Shown here piece by piece: positions 1 to 28,773 of a stretch of 64,000 nt of DNA (positions are counted from its first letter, which is position 1; each line of letters starts with the position of its first letter). The notes below the pieces were generated by a model. That model was given only the letters and a program-made list of their open reading frames with translations, searched no databases and had not been told where the DNA came from. The translations under genes were made by a program, and so were the position numbers. Source of the DNA: Candidatus Berkelbacteria bacterium (GTDB taxonomy: Bacteria; Patescibacteriota; UBA1384; XYA2-FULL-43-10; 1-14-0-10-43-13); the NCBI GenBank assembly GCA_037143235.1, contig JBAWZC010000001.1:1132-65131 (forward strand), written 5' to 3'.

Positions 1-2705
1 GCTTTACCGTTACCGCTTGAATCATTCCCGTTGCCATCAAACTTCCAATATCCAGCCAATCCACTTTCTGCCCCTCCTGCCGCGCCATTAACCGTCATAT
101 TATAGAAGTCTTTACCGGTACCCGTGCCACCAGTATTGATGGTTTTGCCTGCTGTTGAGCCATTGAAGTTGACAGTACTTGCACCCTTGGTAAATATTCC
201 TCCGGTGTTGTTCCAGCTACCACCAACATTGATAGTCTGATTCCCAGGTGCGAATGTACCAGCAGCTAGATTGATGTCCCCTGTGATCGTCAAATCGCGA
301 CTAGCCGAAACTGTGTTAGTATAACCAGAATTAATCGAGAGCGAATTAACCGTTCCAGCGAAATTACTATCAATAGTTGATGCCTTGGTCGATGTCCCAT
401 CAAAGATAACATCATTAGTCGCTATCGGCTTTGCATTTCCGCTCCAGTTCGCATCTGTATTCCAATTGCTATCTGAGCCCCCACCGGTCCAAATCCTAGT
501 ACTATCAACGATGAAATTAACTACGATAGTATGATCAGTTATAACATTAGAAAAAGTGTAGGGACTGGCCAGCGTTGGCTGAGCGACACCGTCAACGACA
601 AGAGAAGCAATATAATAGCCTGAGCTCGGACTGAAAGAAAAAGCCTGATTAGCGTTGGCATTGACATAGGTAGCACCATTTGGTGAAATAGTACCGCCTG
701 CACTGGCCGAGGCAGTAATTGTATTTTGAGTCGTAAAGGTCCACTTGGTGTTTCCGCTGACATTGTTGGAATTGTAGGCCGTAATATTGGAAGCATTTTG
801 ATTGACTGATTCAGAGATAGTAGCATAACGAATATTCACATTGGCCACATTGGACGGATTGACATTCCAAACCCCCGCATCGCCAACTTTCTTTTGTAAC
901 ACCACATTGTGATCTTTTGTCCCTGTCACCGTCCAAGTACCAGAAATCGTTTGAGTGGAACCTCCAGCGAAACTCAGGGTCTTGTCAGCTGTAGTAGCTG
1001 TAACATTATTAAATGTCGTGTTCCCAGAAATTGTTGCACTACCATCAAAAGCGACTGTGCTACCGTTGGCTGTAAAAGTGCCGCCAGAATTGGCAAAAGT
1101 ACCACCGTCGCCAATGTGGATAGTTTTGCCATTGGCATCCAGCGTGCCGGAAGAGACGGTGAAATTATTGAGTGCGGTGAGATTGGAAGAAAGAGTATAA
1201 GAACCAGGAGAATTCGGCGAATTATATGCATACAAATTAGATATCTCTGATTGTGTAAGCACCCGGCCAGAGTAGATACGCAGTTCATCAACAGAGCCGT
1301 TGAAATAACGACCAAGGTCAGTGCCTGTCGGCGTATAATAACCAAACCCACCAATATTGAGAGCTTTGGTATTTGCGCCTGGTCCGTTTGCGCTAGCTAT
1401 CTGATTGACATAATTTCCATTTACATAAAATCTATAGTAAGAGCCATCAAATGTTGCCGTAACCATATTCCAAGAACCCGTCGACAGTGTATATGGCACA
1501 TCCCCACCGCCAGATGTCCATGGCCCAGTCGCAGTGGCTAGTCCAATATTTTGTGTTCCAGCGTTATTATAAAGCCTAAGGTCATAGCCACCATTGTTCG
1601 GATTGGCATCGTATTTGCTTACTATAGACGCAAGACTATTTAATGCTGGCAAGGCAACAGGATTGATCCAGACCGAGATAGACATGGTCCCAGATATATT
1701 CAATGGTGCCGAGCTGGGTGCTGTGATTTTGTTACTTCCGCTAAGAGTCAGTCCACCGCTAAATCGACCGACGGAATGCATTACCGAGGTATTTTGCGGA
1801 GCCGTGGCGGTATTCGTATTAGCGGAATCAGCCACCGTGGTATTGGATGTATTCTCATCCATCTTCCAATAGCCTTGCAAAGAGCTCTCTGTGCCACCAG
1901 CTACGGCCGCTATCGTAGCATTGTAAAAACTTTGACCATTGGTTGAAATAGTCTTCCCGCTCGCAGTGCCATTAAAAATAACCGATGGTTCCTGCCCCGC
2001 CGTAAAAGTAGCGGCGGTATTGTTCCAGCTACCCGCAACATAAAAAGTTTTGTGGCTGACGGTACCACTGATATTACCGGCAGCCAAAGTGACATCATTA
2101 TCGATATATAGATCATTAACCAAAGTCAGTGTATTCGTATATCCAGAACTGATCGAGAGTGACTTGATGTGGTTAACAAAACCAGCGTCAACAGTAGAAG
2201 CTTTGGTGCTTGTAGCGTTAAAGATTACATCATCAGCTGCCGTCGGCACTACTCCGCCACTCCAGTTGGAAGCACAAGACCAGTTGTTTTCGTTGCCAGC
2301 ACCGCAAGTCTGAGTCGTTCCTGCACCGTTCCAGGTATAAGCCGAAGCTCTCACCAATTTTGGCTGGCTAACCAGTGTCATCGGGACAAAAACGCCCAAA
2401 GCCAATATATAAACAAGCAGGATTGACCAATGAACGGACTTCGCCCACGACGAAGAATGCCAGCTGTAGTACCATTTCCACTTCATCCGAATATAATTGT
2501 GAATCAGAGAAAACTGAGGAAGTAAAGTTTTAGTCGAGCGCTGTATCTTCAGTATTTCGCTATCGAGCTTTTCAGCCTTGTCCAAATAAGCTGATTCCTT
2601 CTCTGACATGGACCTGATCTTATTCTTTTCGTCAACAGAAAGAGGCATGACATCACCACACTTTTTCTTTTTTTTAAAGAATAATTTCTTGAAAAAATTT
2701 GTCAT
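1..2705 (-). CDS. Large cell-surface/secreted repeat protein, partial (C-terminus runs off the window start). It has a roughly 90-aa cytoplasmic tail, a single TM signal-anchor, two long internal repeats and a LamG/concanavalin-like segment.
   Basis: A hand-traced continuous minus-strand reading frame runs from ATG at 2703-2705 (SD-like GAGGGG 8 nt upstream) to position 1 without stops. It is absent from the ORF track because it is not closed. Gly/Thr/Asn/Ser-rich beta-solenoid-like sequence with a repeated block (WNGAGTTQTCG...NWSGGVVPTAADDVIFNATSTKAS and IWTGGGSDSNWNTDANWSGNAKPIATNDVIFDGTSTKAS). The motif FNGSVDELRIYSGRVLTQSEISNLY is typical of laminin-G-like jellyroll domains. Hydrophobic segment SILLVYILALGVFVPMTLV. 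Confidence 0.6.
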   Translation of the reverse strand, partial: MTNFFKKLFFKKKKKCGDVMPLSVDEKNKIRSMSEKESAYLDKAEKLDSEILKIQRSTKTLLPQFSLIHNYIRMKWKWYYSWHSSSWAKSVHWSILLVYILALGVFVPMTLVSQPKLVRASAYTWNGAGTTQTCGAGNENNWSCASNWSGGVVPTAADDVIFNATSTKASTVDAGFVNHIKSLSISSGYTNTLTLVNDLYIDNDVTLAAGNISGTVSHKTFYVAGSWNNTAATFTAGQEPSVIFNGTASGKTISTNGQSFYNATIAAVAGGTESSLQGYWKMDENTSNTTVADSANTNTATAPQNTSVMHSVGRFSGGLTLSGSNKITAPSSAPLNISGTMSISVWINPVALPALNSLASIVSKYDANPNNGGYDLRLYNNAGTQNIGLATATGPWTSGGGDVPYTLSTGSWNMVTATFDGSYYRFYVNGNYVNQIASANGPGANTKALNIGGFGYYTPTGTDLGRYFNGSVDELRIYSGRVLTQSEISNLYAYNSPNSPGSYTLSSNLTALNNFTVSSGTLDANGKTIHIGDGGTFANSGGTFTANGSTVAFDGSATISGNTTFNNVTATTADKTLSFAGGSTQTISGTWTVTGTKDHNVVLQKKVGDAGVWNVNPSNVANVNIRYATISESVNQNASNITAYNSNNVSGNTKWTFTTQNTITASASAGGTISPNGATYVNANANQAFSFSPSSGYYIASLVVDGVAQPTLASPYTFSNVITDHTIVVNFIVDSTRIWTGGGSDSNWNTDANWSGNAKPIATNDVIFDGTSTKASTIDSNFAGTVNSLSINSGYTNTVSASRDLTITGDINLAAGTFAPGNQTINVGGSWNNTGGIFTKGASTVNFNGSTAGKTINTGGTGTGKDFYNMTVNGAAGGAESGLAGYWKFDGNGNDSSGNGK

Positions 2706-2836
2706 GATCACATCCCCTCTCGCAAAAAGATTTGATAAAAATAGACATAATAATTATATCTCCTTACCCGAGACTTAGCAACAAAAGAAATCCCCAAATC
2801 TATTATTCTAGCGACAATGAATAATTACGCGCTGTT

Positions 2837-2866
2837 TGTCATTCCGGACCACGATCCGGAATCTAT
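2837..2866. repeat. Solo palindromic element of the TGTCAT family (tgtcattccggaccacgatccggaatctat).
   Basis: TGTCAT terminus followed by an 8-bp stem (attccgga/tccggaat) and a ctat tail, as in the inverted repeats flanking the GIY-YIG genes. Confidence 0.55.
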
Positions 2867-2943
2867 ATAAATTATTCCCTAATGCTGATTTAAGCCTGCC
2901 GACCGACAGACAGGTTCAGGATAACAATTCCGTGACGATAGTA

Positions 2944-4592: not shown

Positions 4593-6050
4593 ATGGATTC
4601 AGAAAAAAGCAAGTTCAAGATGTCATGGGAATCAATAAAGAGTAAATTTCTCGAACTGACTCCCAAAACAAAACTACTCATTGGTCTCGGTATATTTTTA
4701 TTAGTTGTATTGGTTGCATCGGGAATACTCGCCAAAAGCAAGATGTCTTCGCTTGCCAATAATACTGGAGAAATAGCAGCAGGAAATATCATTGCTGACG
4801 GTAAGTGCAGTTTGCCACAACAAGAAATCAAAGAATCTGCTTTTACGATCGGAGTCCCTGCGGGTTGGCTTTACGAGTTGAACAATGGCACAGTCTCCAT
4901 CATGAAAGATACCTCAAATCTAGAGGGTGCCTTTCTGTATACCGCTAAGCTAACCAAAGAGGATATTTCTGCCAAAGAGTTCCTGACTGCTTCTTCGGGA
5001 TTTTTTACTAAATCAGTTGCAGCAGAAGGCGGCACATTTACGGTAACGAATATCAAAGAAATTGATGGCGATGCAGAGGGTACAATCGTGGCGTCGCTTA
5101 ACAATACACCGATCGCAGGTGTATACAAAGTCGAAAAAGAGGGCAATTTCGTTACCCTGAGAGCATATTATGCACCTGAAAAAGATATTGAGACTTCAAG
5201 AAATAACCTAAAAGAAGTGGTCGGTTGCTTTAGTCGTACCACGACGCTCACAACTGATATCTTGACCGCAATCAAAGCCAAAGAAGAAGTGGCCAAAGCA
5301 ACTCCAAGCGGATTTACCAAATATACCGGAAAGTATTTTAGTCTTTCACTACCTTCGGGCTATAAAGTTACTGGCGAAAGTGATTCGGGTATCGATATTA
5401 GCCGAAATGATATGTCTGCCGGCTTTAGCTACGCTTACGTCACAGGGGCAAAAGGGCCATACACATCAGAATCATGGACAAGTTACGCACTGCCAAAATT
5501 TGCCAGCATTGGGAATCTATCGCTTGGATCAGGTCAAAATGTTCCATCAGAAATAGCAGGGATGAAAGTCCAAGAATTTCCTTTTACTGGAGTTTTGAGT
5601 GGCACGACAAATGTGAAAGGAAAAGTGACAACTGGTGTCATCAACACAACTGATTTCGGGATGGGCTCCAGCACCTCGGCTTTCTGGGCGATACAGGTCG
5701 CGAAACCAGAAGTCTTTGGCAGCGTCTCGTCAATTTTGCAGACAATTCAGGATTCAGTCACTATCATTGATATTGGCGACATCAGAAAAAAGGCCATGTT
5801 GCCGCCAAATCGTCCAATAGAGTCTTCTGGCAGCTCGATCCCCTCAAAAAATCCGGGAGCATCAGTCAGCGATGAATCAAGCAACGACTGGGCTGACGCG
5901 ATGCATGGCTACCAAACCATGGAGTCTCCAACCACTGGGGAAAAATTCGATGTTCCTCTGAACTCATGGAACGAAACTGGTCCAGATGGACCGGGACAAT
6001 ATATAAAGTTGCCAAATGGTGACACTCAAAAACTCCAAGAAGTGGAGTAA
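4593..6050 (+). CDS. Hypothetical membrane-anchored extracytoplasmic protein (485 aa)
   Basis: SD-like GGGAGGGA, N-terminal TM anchor (LLIGLGIFLLVVLVASGIL), Ser/Thr/Gly-rich body; no recognisable conserved motifs. Confidence 0.55.
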   Translation: MDSEKSKFKMSWESIKSKFLELTPKTKLLIGLGIFLLVVLVASGILAKSKMSSLANNTGEIAAGNIIADGKCSLPQQEIKESAFTIGVPAGWLYELNNGTVSIMKDTSNLEGAFLYTAKLTKEDISAKEFLTASSGFFTKSVAAEGGTFTVTNIKEIDGDAEGTIVASLNNTPIAGVYKVEKEGNFVTLRAYYAPEKDIETSRNNLKEVVGCFSRTTTLTTDILTAIKAKEEVAKATPSGFTKYTGKYFSLSLPSGYKVTGESDSGIDISRNDMSAGFSYAYVTGAKGPYTSESWTSYALPKFASIGNLSLGSGQNVPSEIAGMKVQEFPFTGVLSGTTNVKGKVTTGVINTTDFGMGSSTSAFWAIQVAKPEVFGSVSSILQTIQDSVTIIDIGDIRKKAMLPPNRPIESSGSSIPSKNPGASVSDESSNDWADAMHGYQTMESPTTGEKFDVPLNSWNETGPDGPGQYIKLPNGDTQKLQEVE

Positions 6051-7167: not shown

Positions 7168-7243
7168 TGGTGGACCCAACAGGATTCGAACCTGCGACAT
7201 CCTCGTTGCAAACGAGGCGCTCTACCAACTGAGCTATGGGCCC
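7168..7243 (-). tRNA. tRNA-Ala (anticodon TGC)
   Basis: Reverse complement GGGCCCATAGCTCAGTTGGTAGAGCGCCTCGTTTGCAACGAGGATGTCGCAGGTTCGAATCCTGTTGGGTCCACCA. Cloverleaf with G3:U70 Ala identity pair, anticodon loop TTTGCAA, encoded CCA, and an intrinsic terminator hairpin right after the 3' end. Confidence 0.9.
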
Positions 7244-7511: not shown

Positions 7512-7587
7512 GGGCCGGTAGTTCAGCTGGTAGAACACTGCATTCGCATTGCAGAGGTAGAGGGTTCGAGTCCCTCCCGGTCCACCA
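7512..7587 (+). tRNA. tRNA-Ala (anticodon CGC)
   Basis: GGGCCGGTAGTTCAGCTGGTAGAACACTGCATTCGCATTGCAGAGGTAGAGGGTTCGAGTCCCTCCCGGTCCACCA. G3:U70, anticodon loop TTCGCAT, T-loop TTCGAGT, encoded CCA. Candidate promoter TTGTAT-17-TAGCAT upstream. Confidence 0.85.
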
Positions 7588-9506: not shown

Positions 9507-11219
9507 TTATCGCCTCATCGATTCTGGCAACATCGTCATCTCCCCGAAGTCTTTACGCTTTTCCAGATCGTTTAGGTGCTTCTTTTTTTCCTGAACAAAT
9601 TTCTCAGCATCAAAACCAAATTTTGAGATCAACATAGATGCATATTTTCCACCAAATAAATGCGGTGTGATCACATAGGTCGCACCTGCCTCATATAGCG
9701 CAATCGCTTCGTCAACAACATGAGACACAACTATCACGATTGCCTTCGGATTGATCTGATTCACCTTTTCGATTAAGAAATCGTTCGTATCAAAATCTGG
9801 TATTGTCGACACAACCATCTTCACATTTTCGAAACCAATCTCATCGAGAAATTCATTGTCGTCTGCATCACCATATCTGGTCTCCACCCCCATCGCCTTC
9901 AGATGAGCGATCATCTCTGGGTCATAATCAACGACCAAAAATTTTGAGGCTTCGTCTTTGAAAACTTCCAACAACTCCTGTCCAGTCCTGTTGCAACCAA
10001 ACATCACTACTTCATACTTTTTGCTTTCAGTTTTGAGTTCTCTCGGATTTGACCTTTCCATTGTTCCCAAAATAGGAGTGAAAAATTTATAAATTTTGTC
10101 AGAAAATATGATTAAGTATGACGAACCAGCAATGGTTAACATCGAGACGGTAGTAACAATAGTGAGAACCGATTCGGAGATATGTCCATAAGTCACACCT
10201 GCCACCAGCAGTATGATCGAAAATTCACTTACTTGCGTCAGCGTATTACCAGCCAAAAAACTGATTCTTTTCTTGTAGCCGAGAGCTAGGCCAACGATGA
10301 TTGCAATCAACGGCTTCACCGTCAGGACGAAAAGCGACAGAACCACAACCGGTATCCAGTTATGGGCCAAGCTGCTAATTGATATTTTTGATCCCAACAA
10401 AACGAAAAACAGAACGATGAAGAAATCGCGTAATGGTCGTAATTTCGAAGAAATCTCAAAATGAAATGGTGAGGTAGACAGGGCTACTCCAGCGATCAGG
10501 GCACCAATCTCGATCGAAAATCCAAGGACATGGAAAAGAGCAGCCAAACCCAGCCCCCAAGCCATCGAAAAAAGAAAAAGCAATTCTTGCGACTTTGCAA
10601 AATAGTTCATAAACCATGGCAAGATATACGATGAAAACAAAATAACTAGATCGACGACAACAACACCTTTTAGCAAAGTGAGTGCAATTACTGTCCAATC
10701 AGATCCGCCGCTCTTGCCATAGGTTGTAACACCAATCAGGATCAATGAAATCAATAGATCCTGTACCAACAAAAGACCAATCGAAACCTTACTATAAAGT
10801 TTTCCAAGATCTTTTTTATCTGAAATCAACTTCATAATGATAATAGTACTACTAAAGGCCAACGCAGCCCCGATATAGATAGATGAAATATTGTCCAAGC
10901 CCAAAAACCTTGAGACAGCAAACCCAGCCAAAGATGTCAAAACCACCTGAATCAGTCCGATAGAAAGCGAATTACGACCCACCTCCTTGATAACTTTCGG
11001 ACTTAAGTTCAAGCCGATAATGAACAGCAGCAAGGCCACCCCAAATTTCGATAAAATGTCGATCGACCCAGTGATCTCCGCATTGCCAAACAAAAACGGC
11101 CCAACCAATAAACCAGTCAGAATATGACCAATGATAATCGGCTGTCGCAAAAGTTGCATTATCCCAGCTAGAACCGCCGCGACGACAATTACGATAGTTA
11201 AGCCAATAAATATTTCCAT
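9507..11219 (-). CDS. Monovalent cation:proton antiporter (CPA2/Kef-type) with a C-terminal RCK/TrkA-N domain
   Basis: About 12 TM helices with Kef-like GHILTGLLVGP and GLNLSP motifs; C-terminal Rossmann block VVMFGCNRTGQELL...DADD typical of TrkA-N. Start set at ATG 11219 (SD-like GGAGGA 4 nt upstream) rather than the track's upstream extension. Confidence 0.85.
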   Translation of the reverse strand: MEIFIGLTIVIVVAAVLAGIMQLLRQPIIIGHILTGLLVGPFLFGNAEITGSIDILSKFGVALLLFIIGLNLSPKVIKEVGRNSLSIGLIQVVLTSLAGFAVSRFLGLDNISSIYIGAALAFSSTIIIMKLISDKKDLGKLYSKVSIGLLLVQDLLISLILIGVTTYGKSGGSDWTVIALTLLKGVVVVDLVILFSSYILPWFMNYFAKSQELLFLFSMAWGLGLAALFHVLGFSIEIGALIAGVALSTSPFHFEISSKLRPLRDFFIVLFFVLLGSKISISSLAHNWIPVVVLSLFVLTVKPLIAIIVGLALGYKKRISFLAGNTLTQVSEFSIILLVAGVTYGHISESVLTIVTTVSMLTIAGSSYLIIFSDKIYKFFTPILGTMERSNPRELKTESKKYEVVMFGCNRTGQELLEVFKDEASKFLVVDYDPEMIAHLKAMGVETRYGDADDNEFLDEIGFENVKMVVSTIPDFDTNDFLIEKVNQINPKAIVIVVSHVVDEAIALYEAGATYVITPHLFGGKYASMLISKFGFDAEKFVQEKKKHLNDLEKRKDFGEMTMLPESMRR

Positions 11220-11420
11220 AAAATCCTCCGATATTTCACCATGAATATTACAATAATAGTATAGATGATTTACTCTAATTAGAAAAGAAAAGACAGTAGA
11301 CCAAAGCCATTTCAATCTATTTATATCAAACTAGCAACTTAAGGTTGAATTATAGAACGAAATTTGGTATATTTTTACCGTTGCAGATTTATTTATTCTT
11401 TGACAGCAAGAAATAAATTT

Positions 11421-11493
11421 GGGCGCGTAGCTCAGTTGGTTACCTGCCCGCAATGCTTATGCATAGCGTATGCAGGCGGGGAGCACGTCACTG
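11421..11493 (+). pseudogene. Partial 5'-half copy of tRNA-Ile (nt 1-22 and nt 23-35), interrupted by a 38-nt hairpin insert in the D-loop and truncated in the anticodon loop
   Basis: GGGCGCGTAGCTCAGTTGGTTA (11421-11442) and GAGCACGTCACTG (11481-11493) are identical to the 5' part of the intact tRNA-Ile 90 nt downstream. Identity ends after anticodon-loop CTG. Confidence 0.6.
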
Positions 11494-11582
11494 CATACAA
11501 GAATCGAAAGTGCCCGAAGGGCGACAGGGCGTAATGCGAACAAATTACAATTTATTTATTTTTTTACTGGTGGGCACAATAG

Positions 11583-11659
11583 GGGCGCGTAGCTCAGTTG
11601 GTTAGAGCACGTCACTGATAATGACGGGGTCGGAGATTCGAGTTCTCCCGCGCCCACCA
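11583..11659 (+). tRNA. tRNA-Ile (anticodon GAT)
   Basis: GGGCGCGTAGCTCAGTTGGTTAGAGCACGTCACTGATAATGACGGGGTCGGAGATTCGAGTTCTCCCGCGCCCACCA. Canonical cloverleaf, anticodon loop CTGATAA, encoded CCA. Confidence 0.9.
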
Positions 11660-11675
11660 GTAAGATAGTAATTGC

Positions 11676-11721
11676 GAGCACTAATGACGGGGTCGGAGAT
11701 TCGAGTTCTCCCGCGCCCACC
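11676..11721 (+). pseudogene. 3'-half copy of tRNA-Ile (anticodon-loop TAATGACGG through CCA), 16 nt downstream of the intact gene
   Basis: TAATGACGGGGTCGGAGATTCGAGTTCTCCCGCGCCCACCA is identical to tRNA-Ile nt 36-77. An intrinsic terminator (AAACGCTTTAAATAGCGTTTTTTTG) follows at about 11737-11762. Confidence 0.6.
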
Positions 11722-11817
11722 AAACAAACGAAACAAACGCTTTAAATAGCGTTTTTTTGTTTGTCAAAAATATGAGTTCGCGGTAAGATTAAAAAATAAG
11801 CAATTAATATCGAAAAA

Positions 11818-13125
11818 ATGAAAAAAATTATCCGCAAACTGTTACCAAAACGACTTATACTGCTCTACCATTATTTTCTCGCACTTTTAGCCACACTGAT
11901 ATACGGCTCCCCTGCCAAAAAAATGATTATCATTGGCGTCACTGGCACCAAGGGCAAAACCACAACTTCCAACTACATCTGGTCTTGTCTCTCTGCTTGC
12001 GGCATCAAGACAGGCATCATTTCCACCGCCAACATTCGTATCGGTAACGAAGAATCGCTCAATGAATATCACATGACGATGCCAGGGCGCTTCACCATCC
12101 AAAAATTGTTAAAACAGATGGCCGATGCGGGCTGCAAGTACTGCGTCGTCGAAACCACCTCGGAAGGACTTAAACAATATCGTCACATCGGCGTTCACTA
12201 CGACATTGGTGTTTTTACCAATTTGACCCCAGAACATCTCTCGGCCCATGGTGGCTCATTTGAAAATTACAAAAATGCCAAAAGTATCATGTTCCGTGCC
12301 CTTTCCAAAAACATCAAAACAATTGACGATAAAAAAATCGAAAAAATTATTATTGCCAATGCCGATAGTGAATATGCCGACTTCTATCTTAATTTTCCTG
12401 TCGATAAAAAAATCACTTACTCCATCGATCAACCATCCGACTACAAGGCAGCGAAAATCGTCGAATCTGTTGAGGGTGTGAAATTTGAACTTGGCTCAGA
12501 AAAATACGCCAGCAAAATCACCGGCCGCTTCAATGTCTACAACATTTTGCCCGCCATCATCATCTGTAAACTTGCTGGCGGTACAAACGAAAAAATAAAG
12601 CTAGGATTAAATAGTCTCGAAGTTATTCCGGGCAGAATGGAATTTATCGACAAGGGACAAAATTTCAAAACGATGGTTGATTATGCCCACGAAAAACAAA
12701 GTATTACCAATATATTAAATACTGCCAGAAAAATTATTGCTCCGACATCAAAAGTTATTATCTTGCTCGGTGCCGAAGGTGGTGGCCGAGACAAAACTAA
12801 GCGAACTGCGATGGGCGAACTCTCCGCCAAGCTATCTGACTTTGTTGTCGTTTCCAATGTTGACCCTTACGAAGACAATCCAACCGAGATCGTCGAAGAT
12901 ATCGCCAAAGTCGCCGAAAATAATGGCAAAGAGCGTGACAAAAACTTATTCGTGATCGAAGATCGCCGCGAAGGCATCCGCAAAGCCTTCTCACTCGCCC
13001 ATCGTGACGACATCGTCCTCATCACTGGCAAAGGCGCCGAGCAATCGATCACCATCGGCGGCGTCAAATATCCGTGGGACGACCGCACTGTCGTGATTGA
13101 AGAATTGGAAAAACTAAAATTTTAG
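11818..13125 (+). CDS. Mur ligase family protein (MurE-like UDP-N-acetylmuramoyl-tripeptide synthetase) with an N-terminal TM segment
   Basis: GVTGTKGKTTT ATP-binding P-loop, TNLTPEHL motif, and a C-terminal Mur ligase domain (GGGRDKTKR...LITGKGAEQ...PWDDR). Promoter-like TTGTCA-17-TAAGAT upstream. Confidence 0.75.
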   Translation: MKKIIRKLLPKRLILLYHYFLALLATLIYGSPAKKMIIIGVTGTKGKTTTSNYIWSCLSACGIKTGIISTANIRIGNEESLNEYHMTMPGRFTIQKLLKQMADAGCKYCVVETTSEGLKQYRHIGVHYDIGVFTNLTPEHLSAHGGSFENYKNAKSIMFRALSKNIKTIDDKKIEKIIIANADSEYADFYLNFPVDKKITYSIDQPSDYKAAKIVESVEGVKFELGSEKYASKITGRFNVYNILPAIIICKLAGGTNEKIKLGLNSLEVIPGRMEFIDKGQNFKTMVDYAHEKQSITNILNTARKIIAPTSKVIILLGAEGGGRDKTKRTAMGELSAKLSDFVVVSNVDPYEDNPTEIVEDIAKVAENNGKERDKNLFVIEDRREGIRKAFSLAHRDDIVLITGKGAEQSITIGGVKYPWDDRTVVIEELEKLKF

Positions 13126-13151
13126 TTGGAAAATTAGCCCTGCCACCCGTT

Positions 13152-13530
13152 TGTCATTGCGAGCTATTGGGTTTTCCAAAGCGCGGCAATCTATCATGCT
13201 CTACCATGAAAAACTATTACACCTACATTTTATCTAACTATGATAATTCTGTTCTGTATATTGGGATTACCAATAATTTAGTTCGTAGAACACACGAGCA
13301 CAAAAACAATTTAATCGAGAGTTTTTCATCCAAATACAAAGTCCACAAATTAGTTTATTTCGAGGAAACCAATGACGCAAACTCTGCAATTTCACGAGAA
13401 AGACAATTGAAAGCTGGTAGCAGACAGAAAAAACTCGATTTAATAGCAAAAAACAATCCTGAATTTAATGATTTGTATCCAGAACTATTATAATGATAGA
13501 TTGCCGCGTCGCAGACTCCTCGCAATGACA
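13152..13530. mobile_element. Palindrome-flanked GIY-YIG cassette, divergent family member: 45-bp left IR, GIY-YIG gene, 37-bp right IR
   Basis: Left IR 13152-13196 tgtcattgcgagctattgggttttccaaagcgcggcaatctatca and right IR 13494-13530 tgatagattgccgcgtcgcagactcctcgcaatgaca. The terminal 12-14 nt are exact reverse complements (tgtcattgcgag/ctcgcaatgaca; gcggcaatctatca/tgatagattgccgc). Confidence 0.7.
13206..13493 (+). CDS. GIY-YIG nuclease family protein (small URI-domain/YhbQ-like, 95 aa)
   Basis: YTYILSNYDNSVLYIGITNNLVRRTHEHK matches the GIY...YIG motif with the conserved Arg and Glu. The ORF occupies the interval between the two IRs almost exactly; the TTG track start lies inside the left IR. 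Confidence 0.75.
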   Translation: MKNYYTYILSNYDNSVLYIGITNNLVRRTHEHKNNLIESFSSKYKVHKLVYFEETNDANSAISRERQLKAGSRQKKLDLIAKNNPEFNDLYPELL

Positions 13531-13563
13531 GACATTAGGCAGCCATTGCAACAATCCCCTGCT

Positions 13564-13688
13564 TGTCATTGCGAGCTATTGGGTTTTCCAAAGCGTGGCA
13601 ATCTATCATATCCTTTTTTTACTATTGCGGCCCAACCACGGTATCAAAGCACGATAGATTGCCGCGTCGCAGACTCCTCGCAATGACA
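13564..13688. repeat. Empty miniature copy of the same element (MITE-like): left IR and right IR separated by only 44 bp
   Basis: 13564-13608 is near-identical to the left IR at 13152 (one mismatch) and 13653-13688 is identical to the right IR at 13494. No ORF lies between them. Confidence 0.7.
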
Positions 13689-13756
13689 AATTTAGGTATT
13701 TATCAATTTTGTACTTTCTTAACACAATTAGATTAATTAAGTCAATTAGATCAATT

Positions 13757-13937: not shown

Positions 13938-15524
<1,587 letters not shown>

Positions 15525-21321: not shown

Positions 21322-21678
21322 TGTCATTCCCGCGCAGGCGGGAATCCACCAATAGCCACCTCCTAATTTTTATTCAAGTAAGTCTTTCCACCCAGGATTG
21401 CTTTGCTCAATCAACTTTATTTTCCAAACCCTATTCCACTTTTTAAGACGCTTTTCTCTAAGAATTGCCTCAGTCACATCAGATGTTTCTTCGAAGTAAA
21501 CAAGTTTTTTGGCTCCATATTTTTCAGAAAAACCGTTTGTAATTTTATCTTTATGCTCATTCGTTCGCTTCTCTAAATTTGATGTCACCCCCACATACAA
21601 TGTTCCATTCAAACGACTTGCCAATATGTATACAAAGTATTTTTTCATTTGTGGATTCCCGCCTGCGCGGGAATGACA
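21322..21678. mobile_element. Palindrome-flanked GIY-YIG cassette: 28-bp perfect IRs (tgtcattcccgcgcaggcgggaatccac at 21322-21349; reverse complement at 21651-21678)
   Basis: The IRs are exact reverse complements and each is itself a hairpin (ttcccgcg/cgcgggaa). The GIY-YIG ORF fills the space between them. Confidence 0.75.
21370..21648 (-). CDS. GIY-YIG nuclease family protein (92 aa)
   Basis: YFVYILASRLNGTLYVGVTSNLEKRTNEHK GIY-YIG motif; about 80% identical to the copy at 28464-28742 and about 45% to that at 13206-13493. Confidence 0.75.
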   Translation of the reverse strand: MKKYFVYILASRLNGTLYVGVTSNLEKRTNEHKDKITNGFSEKYGAKKLVYFEETSDVTEAILREKRLKKWNRVWKIKLIEQSNPGWKDLLE

Positions 21679-24348: not shown

Positions 24349-25491
24349 CTATTGCAATACTTCGATCCCTGGCAGCTCTTTTCCGGCCAAAAACTCTAGC
24401 GCTGCCCCACCACCGGTTGAGATAAAGGTAATATTTTTGTCCAAGCCCTGTGACTTGACGAAACCAACTGTATCACCGCCAGCAATCACTGTTTCGGCGT
24501 TAATATTGCTCAACGCCTCAGCAACCACCCTTGAGCCATTGGCATATTCGTTATCTTCAGTATAACCCAAATTACCGTTCCAAAATACTGTTTTTACCCC
24601 TGAAATAATATCGACATACTTTTTCTGCGTCTCGGCACCAATATCAAGTATCTTGCCATTATTTCTGACAAAGTCTGTCGGCAAAACTATCTTCTCTCCA
24701 TACTTTTTAAGTATTTCCTTACACCTCTCGACCATTGTCTCATCATAAACCGAATCACCAATATTTAGACCGCTTGCTTTCAAAAAGGTATTAGCTACTC
24801 CTCCGCCCAACAAGATTTTGTCGACTTTGGGTGCTAAAAATTCGATCACGCCAGCTTTGTCCTCTATTTTCACGCCCCCAATGATCAAAATGAACGGCAA
24901 TTTTGGTTCCGTCATCACTTTAGTAAGTTCAGAAATTTCTTTTTGAATCAACAAACCCGCATAACCTGGCAAAAATTTTGTAATTGCGTGCACCGAAGCA
25001 TTGGCACGATGTGAGACGGCAAAAGCATCATTTATATAAATATCCTGCCCAGCCGCAAGCTCTTTGGCATATTCCTCGTCGTCTTTTTCTTCGCCAGAGT
25101 TGAATCTTAAATTTTCAAGCAACATCACTCTCTCATTCAATTCAAACCTTTCAGCTGGTCCATCAAATTTTTTATCAATATTTAACTTTTCAGCCAATCT
25201 GTTCGCAACTGGCCACAAACTAAATTCCGAATTATTTTTCCGCGTCGGCCTGCCCGCCTCATTTTGCGAAGCAATTTGGGCGGGCTTACCTAGATGAGAC
25301 CCAATAGTGATCTTGCTTGCTCCATTTTCCAACAAATAATTAATCGTCGGTAAAGCCGCATCAATACGATTATCATCCGCAATACTGTTTTCTGTTTTCT
25401 GTGTGCTGTTCACTGAATTCATCGGCACATTGAAATCCACGCGCAGGAAGATATTTTTACCTGCAATTTCCGCTTGCTCAATTGTTTTCAT
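24349..25491 (-). CDS. pgk: Phosphoglycerate kinase
   Basis: Canonical PGK motifs (RVDFNVPM, GGGA...LE at the C-terminus). Start at ATG 25489-25491 with SD-like GGGAAGTGG; the track start was GTG. Confidence 0.9.
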   Translation of the reverse strand: MKTIEQAEIAGKNIFLRVDFNVPMNSVNSTQKTENSIADDNRIDAALPTINYLLENGASKITIGSHLGKPAQIASQNEAGRPTRKNNSEFSLWPVANRLAEKLNIDKKFDGPAERFELNERVMLLENLRFNSGEEKDDEEYAKELAAGQDIYINDAFAVSHRANASVHAITKFLPGYAGLLIQKEISELTKVMTEPKLPFILIIGGVKIEDKAGVIEFLAPKVDKILLGGGVANTFLKASGLNIGDSVYDETMVERCKEILKKYGEKIVLPTDFVRNNGKILDIGAETQKKYVDIISGVKTVFWNGNLGYTEDNEYANGSRVVAEALSNINAETVIAGGDTVGFVKSQGLDKNITFISTGGGAALEFLAGKELPGIEVLQ

Positions 25492-25603
25492 AATTACCAC
25501 TTCCCGTAGACCACGCTTTAGCGTGTTTACAAACTAAAGTTTGAGCTACACTATATATTAACAATATTTTACCACAACTGCCTCGTCATGATACAATAAT
25601 ATC

Positions 25604-28339: not shown

Positions 28340-28418
28340 ATTTACCTCCATCAGTTAATTTTCATTGATGGACTATCTGCCATCACCCAATTTACTTTGT
28401 CATTCCCGCACCCTTATT

Positions 28419-28773
28419 TGTCATTCCCGCGCAGGCGGGAATCCACAAAAAGTCAACTCATAATCATTCAGTCAAATCTTTCCATCCAGGATTATTTTCT
28501 TCAATCAATCTTATTTTCCAAATTCTATTCCATTTTTTAAGACGTTTTTCTCGAAGTGATGCCTCGTGAATATCTGTCGTTTCTTCAAAATAGACAAGTT
28601 TGCTTACTCCGTATTTCTCAGAAAAACCATCAGCGATTTTATCTCGGTGTTCGGTTGTCCGTTTCTCTAAATTTGATGTTACTCCGGTATACAATGTTCC
28701 GTTGAAATGGCTCGCCAGTATGTAAACATAATATTTTTTCATTTTGTGGATTCCCGCCTGCGCGGGAATGACA
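28419..28773. mobile_element. Palindrome-flanked GIY-YIG cassette with the same 28-bp IRs as the 21322 copy (28419-28446 and 28746-28773), plus an adjacent partial IR at 28398-28413
   Basis: IRs are identical to those of the 21322-21678 element. Inserted between gap and tpiA. Confidence 0.75.
28464..28742 (-). CDS. GIY-YIG nuclease family protein (92 aa)
   Basis: YYVYILASHFNGTLYTGVTSNLEKRTTEHR; paralog of the 21370-21648 gene. Confidence 0.75.
   Translation of the reverse strand: MKKYYVYILASHFNGTLYTGVTSNLEKRTTEHRDKIADGFSEKYGVSKLVYFEETTDIHEASLREKRLKKWNRIWKIRLIEENNPGWKDLTE

Follow-up and report, generated by a model that had tools for sequence, protein, structure and literature searches.

A complete tRNA-Ile gene between the halves of a second, split copy in a Candidatus Berkelbacteria genome

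How does an intact tRNA gene come to lie between the two halves of another copy of itself? The question is raised by a tRNA-Ile(GAT) locus of a Candidatus Berkelbacteria bacterium, studied here within a 64-kb stretch of genomic DNA (the window). ARAGORN and the Rfam tRNA model (71.1 bits) call a single intact gene at 11583-11659, where an earlier interpretation of the bare letters (the sequence-only reading) had placed it. BLAST of this gene against the whole window detects three more pieces of it. Positions 11421-11442 match nucleotides (nt) 1-22 (100% identity, E=2e-7), the match continues collinearly with nt 23-35 at 11481-11493 (100%), and 11682-11722 match nt 37-77 (41/41 identical, E=1e-18). 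The 64 kb hold no tRNA-Ile fragment beyond these three. One callable tRNA accompanied by fragments is the outcome that the sequence-only reading had predicted for an ARAGORN search. The order on the DNA is 5' half, intact gene, 3' half, and the locus is organized as follows:

11345..11373, plus strand: sigma-70-type promoter, ancestral (TTGAAT, 17-nt spacer, TATATT, TG extension), scoring 9/12 in the promoter scan, upstream of the outer 5' fragment
11421..11442, plus strand: outer 5' fragment, part 1, tRNA-Ile nt 1-22 (5' strands of the acceptor stem and D-stem, and D-loop), 22/22 identical
11443..11480, plus strand: GC-rich palindrome of 38 nt inserted in the outer copy's D-loop (CCTGCCCGC...GCAGGCGGG), folding as a hairpin
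11481..11493, plus strand: outer 5' fragment, part 2, tRNA-Ile nt 23-35, whose last base is the first anticodon base G, 13/13 identical
11494..11582, plus strand: left part of the intervening segment, including the inner tRNA leader (repeat families D3, D4 and I1)
11583..11659, plus strand: intact tRNA-Ile(GAU), the sole functional gene of the locus (ARAGORN, Rfam, 77/77 identity to relatives)
11660..11681, plus strand: right part of the intervening segment, the 22-nt inner trailer, with GTAA pairing with the leader (inverted repeat I1) and GAGCAC at its end
11682..11722, plus strand: outer 3' fragment, tRNA-Ile nt 37-77, from the third anticodon base through CCA, 41/41 identical
11735..11761, plus strand: intrinsic terminator of the ancestral gene (7-bp stem and T run; terminator scan), downstream of the outer 3' fragment

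Taken together the outer fragments match the intact gene at 76 of 76 positions. In linear numbering the last base of the 5' copy is G35 and the first base of the 3' copy is T37, which correspond to anticodon bases 34 and 36 in the standard numbering; the middle anticodon base A is missing from both. The sequence-only reading had the two halves meeting at the same point, which is not the case. It recognized the 3' half but set it at 11680-11721 with a start at nt 36, two features that had to be corrected. The 89-nt spacer that it gave before the intact gene stands, while the 16 nt that it gave after the gene become 22 nt, composed of 16 nt and the sequence GAGCAC, which repeats tRNA nt 23-28. 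Its description of the 5' copy as nt 1-35 with a 38-nt hairpin-forming insert agrees with both the BLAST alignments and the fold. The only ORFs found between the repeats are spurious, of about 50 amino acids, and overlap the tRNA.

A layout of this kind in a metagenome assembly might be created by an assembly error at a tandem tRNA-Ile repeat or by strain mixing, and an independent short contig (L001) does break within the repeated 3' half. The repeats are 41 nt or shorter, while the name of the 123,850-nt source contig, k141_293778, suggests assembly with k=141. L096, a separately retrieved contig of the same organism, is identical across the locus, and the same layout is found with different sequences in unrelated assemblies. 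For these three reasons assembly error is unlikely; a collapsed repeat would in addition leave the unique spacers and the hairpin unexplained. An artefact, against which the sequence-only reading had cautioned, is thus considered highly improbable. Elsewhere the window and L096 differ at 11 positions, all within one 100-nt stretch of the 16S gene (14969-15070 in the window, 4891-4992 in L096), which suggests strain microheterogeneity or a consensus artefact.

The ancestral state can be deduced from relatives. The 16S gene of the window is bacterial and is 91-93% identical to those of L004 and L012, from MAGs labelled Saccharibacteria and Berkelbacteria. It stands alone at 13939-15524 (minus strand), 23S and 5S genes being absent from the 64 kb, and tRNA-Ile and tRNA-Ala(UGC) are found outside any 16S-23S spacer. 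Two tRNA-Ala genes (UGC, CGC) are divergently arranged at 7168-7243 and 7512-7587. The tRNA-Ile sequence is identical over 77/77 nt in four Patescibacteria genomes (L004, L010, L014, L016), each having a plain single gene, and the L012 locus is simple too. The nested arrangement with conserved spacers, which the sequence-only reading would have taken as a sign of a functional structured RNA, is accordingly not what these relatives carry. In L014 the upstream gene codes for a Na+/H+-exchanger (PF00999, TrkA_N) that is common to the window locus. The window promoter (11345-11373) aligns with the L014 promoter AAGGTTGA...TATAAT, and window positions 11735-11780 (hairpin, T run and TTTG(T/C)TCAAA) align with the L014 trailer. 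Both alignable signals are situated outside the outer halves of the window locus. The ancestral promoter and terminator thus bracket the outer halves. It follows that the ancestral gene lay where the outer halves now are, and that it is interrupted by the 188 nt separating them. The nearest MurE-linked relative, L095 (74% MurE identity), has the tRNA followed by its trailer and murE, and lacks an extra 3' half; its contig begins within the tRNA, so that the 3' side is the one visible.

The interruption spans 11494-11681 and is composed of a leader, the complete tRNA-Ile and the 22-nt trailer, inserted inside the anticodon loop of the old gene. Its left part has a small GC hairpin at 11510-11525. 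The inner leader at 11550-11567 resembles the outer leader at 11387-11404, the two being in register with 16/18 and 4/5 matches at offsets of 163 and 162 nt. Further into the inner leader, TTACTGGTGGGC (11564-11575) pairs with GCCCACCAGTAA, which is made up of the tRNA 3' end and trailer. This inverted repeat (I1) is perfect over 12/12 positions and extends to 17/20, and the leader/tRNA/trailer unit folds with -48.3 kcal/mol (z=-5.5). The inner trailer is unrelated to the terminator region found 3' of the outer 3' fragment. Nothing above chance repeats the flanks of the intervening segment elsewhere in the window, and the 9 nt that the inner trailer shares with the repeats on either side of a GIY-YIG gene are a chance-level match (E=2.3).

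That gene is a 108-aa nuclease ORF at 13167-13493, localized between murE and the 16S gene. Direct repeats of 52 nt (13146 and 13558) and 36 nt (13495 and 13653) lie on either side of it, and the ends of the unit are inverted (TGTCATTGCGAG / CTCGCAATGACA). The region 13140-13690 looks like a small mobile unit.

Sequences that pair across the tRNA were also observed at other loci. The motif TGGTGGGC(A/G)CA, which is the complement of the tRNA 3' end GCCCACCA, lies just 5' of the tRNA-Ile genes of nested loci, namely in the window (11564-11575), in both copies of L026 and in L054. The L054 motif is longer, being perfectly complementary over 16 bp to the 3' end and trailer. The simple loci examined lack the motif. 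The single tRNA-Ile genes of L004, L006 and L010 have an inverted repeat of 8-9 bp between leader and trailer, followed by a T run (ATAGACAT...ATGTCTATTTTTTT), and in L010 the pairing is preserved via a G-T wobble. This suggests that the leader/trailer stem around these three genes is a processing or termination stem acting at the RNA level.

The nested layout is found in at least seven other loci: L003, L026, L034, L054, L060, L089 (identical to L060) and L094. The nested tRNAs are tRNA-Ile(GAU), a tRNA with a UAU anticodon and tRNA-Leu(UAG). L003 came from a scan of a genome collection; a metagenome scan for tRNA 3' ends with another acceptor 3' end 45-75 nt further downstream returned 77 loci. 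Short-range tRNA 3' fragments are common across many phyla. Among the long fragments of the metagenome loci, those starting at position 36 form the largest independent class, with L026, L054, L060 (=L089) and L094 of the Ile type and L034 and L051 of tRNA-Leu(UAG). In the nested loci of this class (L026, L034, L054, L060/L089 and L094) the start at anticodon position 36 is shared by tRNAs with three anticodons, while the ends of the 5' fragments are ragged (31, 32, 34, 35, 35 and 38). The two halves meet exactly at 35|36 in L054 and L060, and no base is duplicated. A 5' fragment is present in 6 of the 7 position-36 loci, window included, compared to at most 3 of the 65 others (Fisher p=4e-6), and such tight co-occurrence of the two fragments points to one event rather than two. 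As it recurs in unrelated loci, the break position is non-random. The nested outcome is seen independently in other Patescibacteria-type genomes.

The outer copies of these loci are in different states. In L003, a Parcubacteria MAG, the break is near nt 48-50 in an ancestral promoter-tRNA-Ile-tRNA-Phe array; the interrupting DNA is an intact tRNA-Ile with a flanking 18-bp inverted repeat, and the outer copy has hairpin inserts in the D-arm and T-loop. The outer copies of L026 (a T-stem mismatch and a T-loop change) and L094 (nt 32-35 missing) are decayed. That of L060 is a distinct paralogue with perfect stems, that of L034 is identical to the inner copy, and in L054 long covarying helices bring both junctions together. 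A different type of tandem was noted in L072, a high-GC genome, where several tRNA-Val-like copies, with the anticodon arm replaced by a CCCCGG-tetraloop-CCGGGG hairpin, surround an intact tRNA-Val(GAC) at about 2500-2900 (plus strand).

Partial tRNA copies are usually interpreted as traces of the integration of phages or islands and serve to map such events, the anticodon loop being a classic integrase target. The sequence-only reading followed this line and interpreted the two halves as integrase scars. Its attribution of the halves to a DNA-level event in the anticodon loop is retained, while two integrase events do not fit the junctions. Two tyrosine-integrase elements would have to have integrated in the anticodon loop (attL/attR type), one regenerating the 3' half and the other the 5' half, with later loss of their cargo. 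The direct repeats expected of att scars are indeed present, as the 41-nt 3' copy and the 35-nt 5' copy are 100% identical to the intact gene. As Williams reportedly described in 2002 for the anticodon-loop sublocation, a tRNA 3' fragment displaced by integration stays in front of the native terminator, which is the layout of the window; the abundance of short-range 3' fragments in many phyla is also in keeping with integration, and an archaeal 5' tRNA fragment made by a recombinase element has been published (PMC3293823).

The integrase reading meets several obstacles at the level of the junctions. Site-specific recombination duplicates a shared core, so that scars of the 5' and 3' types overlap by that core, whereas here no overlap exists: the 5' repeat stops at nt 35 and the 3' repeat starts at nt 37 in the window, and the two abut at 35|36 in L054 and L060. 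Neither an integrase nor cargo lies between the repeats, where the spacers measure 22 and 89 nt, and precise excision by an integrase leaves no scar. Two integrations of opposite polarity and two near-total deletions would be needed, and this in several lineages. An exact-match search with the 3' halves of four of these tRNAs against the 2.9 million viral contigs of IMG/VR found no attP-like half-tRNA and a single complete phage tRNA. The two-integrase scenario has little likelihood. A complete tRNA-Ile lies at 5779-5855 of the viral contig L002 (IMGVR_UViG_3300035698_003862), together with one or more further tRNA-like sequences; it has the same acceptor stem and T-arm as the window tRNA and a different anticodon stem. 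Insertion by a serine recombinase, a DDE transposase or an IS200/IS605-type element was rejected as well, since a 2-nt core, a target duplication and a constant target are not consistent across the copies.

Local duplication offers another route to the same order of pieces. Slippage, or break-induced repair from the sister chromosome, could have produced two separate partial duplications, [leader + nt 1-35] and [nt 36-77 + trailer], both initiated by the recurrent 35/36 break. The in-register likeness of the inner and outer leaders would then be a direct consequence. L094 also speaks for this route, with three clear tandem 48-nt units of 5' half and leader directly upstream of the intact gene (about 290-418); in each unit the tRNA-Ile 5' half has diverged, including a compensatory change in the D-stem, and is accompanied by a 16-nt spacer. 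The spacer that follows the tRNA in L051 is similar to the true trailer, which a tandem copy of nt 36 to the end plus trailer would predict. However, a tandem duplication requires the spacer after the inner tRNA to resemble the sequence that follows the outer 3' fragment, and the two are unrelated in the window, L026, L034, L054 and L094. Two events per locus would be necessary in many lineages, while the co-occurrence of 5' and 3' fragments is better fitted by one. Paired duplications are therefore an unlikely origin of the locus.

The outer halves might instead be functional RNA. They could form a tRNA around the inner one, either spliced or assembled from two pieces once RNase P and 3' processing have freed the inner tRNA, or they could serve as a structured clamp of leader and trailer that assists the inner tRNA in its processing or stability. 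The fold of the whole unit pairs the outer acceptor strands (z=-6.3), the architecture recurs, and the perfect stems of the L060 paralogue, the identity of the L034 outer copy and the covarying helices of L054 speak for such a role. The duplicated leader has accumulated 3 changes in 23 nt and a replaced 10-nt patch, compared to none in the 76/76 identical outer fragments (p=0.011), a difference that may reflect gene conversion or constraint on the halves. Against a functional product, the joined halves form a molecule of 76 nt with a 6-nt anticodon loop that lacks the GAU anticodon (the ligated junction would read CACUG joined to UAAUGACG), and no splice register in the window restores this anticodon or a 7-nt loop. 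The 38-nt hairpin lies where D-loop and D-stem join, L026 and L094 have degenerate outer copies, and close relatives get by with a simple gene. Inspection by hand shows no bulge-helix-bulge geometry, and there is no match to group I introns, group II introns or ribozymes. To our knowledge, no protein-based tRNA splicing exists in bacteria, which also weighs against functional outer halves. A role of the halves as RNA is thus improbable, and the outer copy of the window is predicted from its sequence to be unable to make a tRNA.

Known classes of interrupted tRNA genes were also considered. Searches of Rfam with the gathering threshold on the window and with E<=10 on 11200-11900 found tRNA only, and six related loci contain no family besides tRNA; weak matches to HPnc0260, Plastid-ycf2 and permuted tmRNA are tRNA-derived noise. 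Group I introns have a core found by covariance model, a length of at least about 200 nt, a U before the 5' splice site and G as their last base. The intervening segment, of 188 nt including a 77-nt tRNA, is too short, its junction bases (G|C and C|T) are wrong, and neither the window nor the six relatives have a match to the model. Group II introns and small ribozymes are rejected on the same absence of Rfam matches. Archaeal-type split tRNAs have a bulge-helix-bulge at the junctions and their joined exons form a valid tRNA. No 3-4-3 bulge-helix-bulge was identified by hand at the junctions of the window, L054 and L060, the joined window halves are one anticodon base short, and the organism is bacterial by its 16S. 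In a permuted tRNA gene the 3' half would be encoded upstream of the 5' half, opposite to the order here. The low rank that the sequence-only reading gave to a split or permuted tRNA is borne out by this gene order and by the missing base.

The 38-nt insert at 11443-11480, which interrupts the D-loop of the outer copy, is a GC-rich hairpin (-18.8 kcal/mol, z=-2.3) that reads CCCGCCTGC...GCGGGCAGG on the opposite strand. Its termini recur at 25249-25284 of the window, between the tRNA genes of L003 and inside the outer 5' fragment of L026. They also form the outer arms of the tRNA-bearing cassette of L060 and, approximately, those of L054; the anticodon-loop junctions of the window are devoid of these CCCGCC...GGGCAGG arms. 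The copy at 25249-25284 is an exact in-frame insertion of 36 nt, or 12 codons (PAQIASQNEAGR), in pgk (24349-25500, minus strand), and solved PGK structures have a 12-residue gap at the corresponding site. A hairpin-forming repeat with conserved termini is thus present at several unrelated sites, as defines small palindromic elements. An RNA intron is ruled out by the in-frame copy with the same termini in pgk, and the D-loop hairpin is a DNA-level insertion element without target duplication. The pgk insert indicates that this hairpin family reshapes RNA genes and proteins alike in these reduced genomes. Another REP-like hairpin, ATTCCCGCGCAGGCGGGAAT, is found at 21326-21345 and 28423-28442 with conserved flanks TTTGTC...CCAC, and partially a third time at about 28398-28412; it has GCAGGCGGG in common with the tRNA D-loop insert.

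The best explanation for the window locus, judged probable with considerable reserve, is that the outer halves are relics of the ancestral gene, which was split in its anticodon loop by DNA carrying a complete replacement tRNA-Ile. A break or insertion at anticodon position 35/36 would have hit an essential gene that is probably single-copy, as viewed in the 64 kb of the window. This disruption would have persisted only because the incoming DNA brought a functional copy of that tRNA, a 'rescue by cargo'. This DNA may have been acquired by a site-specific nick or break followed by fragment capture, or by mobilisation of a palindrome-bounded cassette. The ancestral promoter and terminator bracket the unit and probably drive one transcript, from which only the inner tRNA would mature, presumably through RNase P cleavage at 11583 and 3' trimming at 11659. 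The outer 5' half has additionally been struck by the 38-nt palindromic mini-element. As the target tRNA gene is essential, such insertions would be seen only with the cognate tRNA aboard, and the rescue idea accounts for the inner and outer genes always sharing their anticodon. Points that weigh against this explanation are the lack of further copies of the intervening flanks in the window, the missing CCCGCC...GGGCAGG arms at its junctions, the identity of the outer fragments to the inner gene beside a diverged leader, and the well-preserved outer copies of L060 and L034.

A more specific proposal is that Patescibacteria harbour an undescribed non-autonomous cassette, made of a tRNA gene with its leader/trailer stem and sometimes CCCGCC...GGGCAGG arms, which inserts precisely between positions 35 and 36 of the cognate tRNA gene and persists by replacing it; this is conceivable but rather doubtful. 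The outer copies of L060 and L034 could in principle be restored by exact excision, and their outer gene possibly works. In the intact cases L060, L034 and L054 the outer gene might still be expressed, as a tRNA with another tRNA as its intervening sequence.

No bacterial tRNA nested in its own disrupted copy was found described in the full-text literature searched. With a recurrent break adjacent to position 36 and no shared core, these loci indicate that half-tRNA repeats are reachable by a route other than phage or island integration. If general, the phenomenon would reveal a site-specific DNA process acting on Patescibacteria tRNA genes at the same 35/36 site as their group I introns, and would exemplify an insertion that an essential single-copy gene tolerates only because a replacement comes with it. 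Caution would also be needed with software for tRNA annotation or island finding, which detects one tRNA and overlooks or misinterprets the halves.

The locus shares traits with several known systems. Palindromic elements of Rickettsia are small palindromic repeats able to insert into genes, and REP elements are likewise small palindromic repeats (PMC3733652). The D-loop hairpin resembles both in being GC-rich and palindromic, with recurring termini and a sibling in a protein gene (pgk). It is much shorter than the Rickettsia elements, differs from both groups by having only two copies in 64 kb and no target-site duplication, and its termini CCCGCC...GGGCAGG are without the GTAG or CGTC tags of classic REPs.

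[quoted passage not shown] The nested loci have in common with them the phylum-level group and this unusual anticodon-loop site, and standard tRNA finders miss both types of gene. In contrast to the introns, the 5' exon would here end in A or G instead of U and the last intervening base is C instead of G; the window halves do not yield a valid tRNA when joined. Among archaea, disrupted tRNA genes include intron-containing, split and fragment-plus-gene forms, and a model was proposed for the Caldiarchaeum tRNA-Thr (PMC3293823). As in some of these, a piece of the tRNA gene precedes the intact gene for that tRNA at the window locus, both the D-arm and the anticodon loop have received insertions, and insertion of mobile DNA is invoked for the arrangement. 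It differs by its bacterial host, by the lack of a bulge-helix-bulge motif and of a recombinase gene in the intervening DNA, and by the size of the latter, just 188 nt with a complete tRNA within.

The resemblance to integrase att repeats lies in the tRNA 3' part that begins in the anticodon loop, downstream of the restored gene and next to the native terminator. Here, no element or integrase separates the repeats, a matching 5' fragment is present too and no crossover core is common to the fragments. Insertions at att sites carry only the part of the tRNA that is needed to restore their target, whereas the DNA inserted at the nested locus carries a whole tRNA gene.
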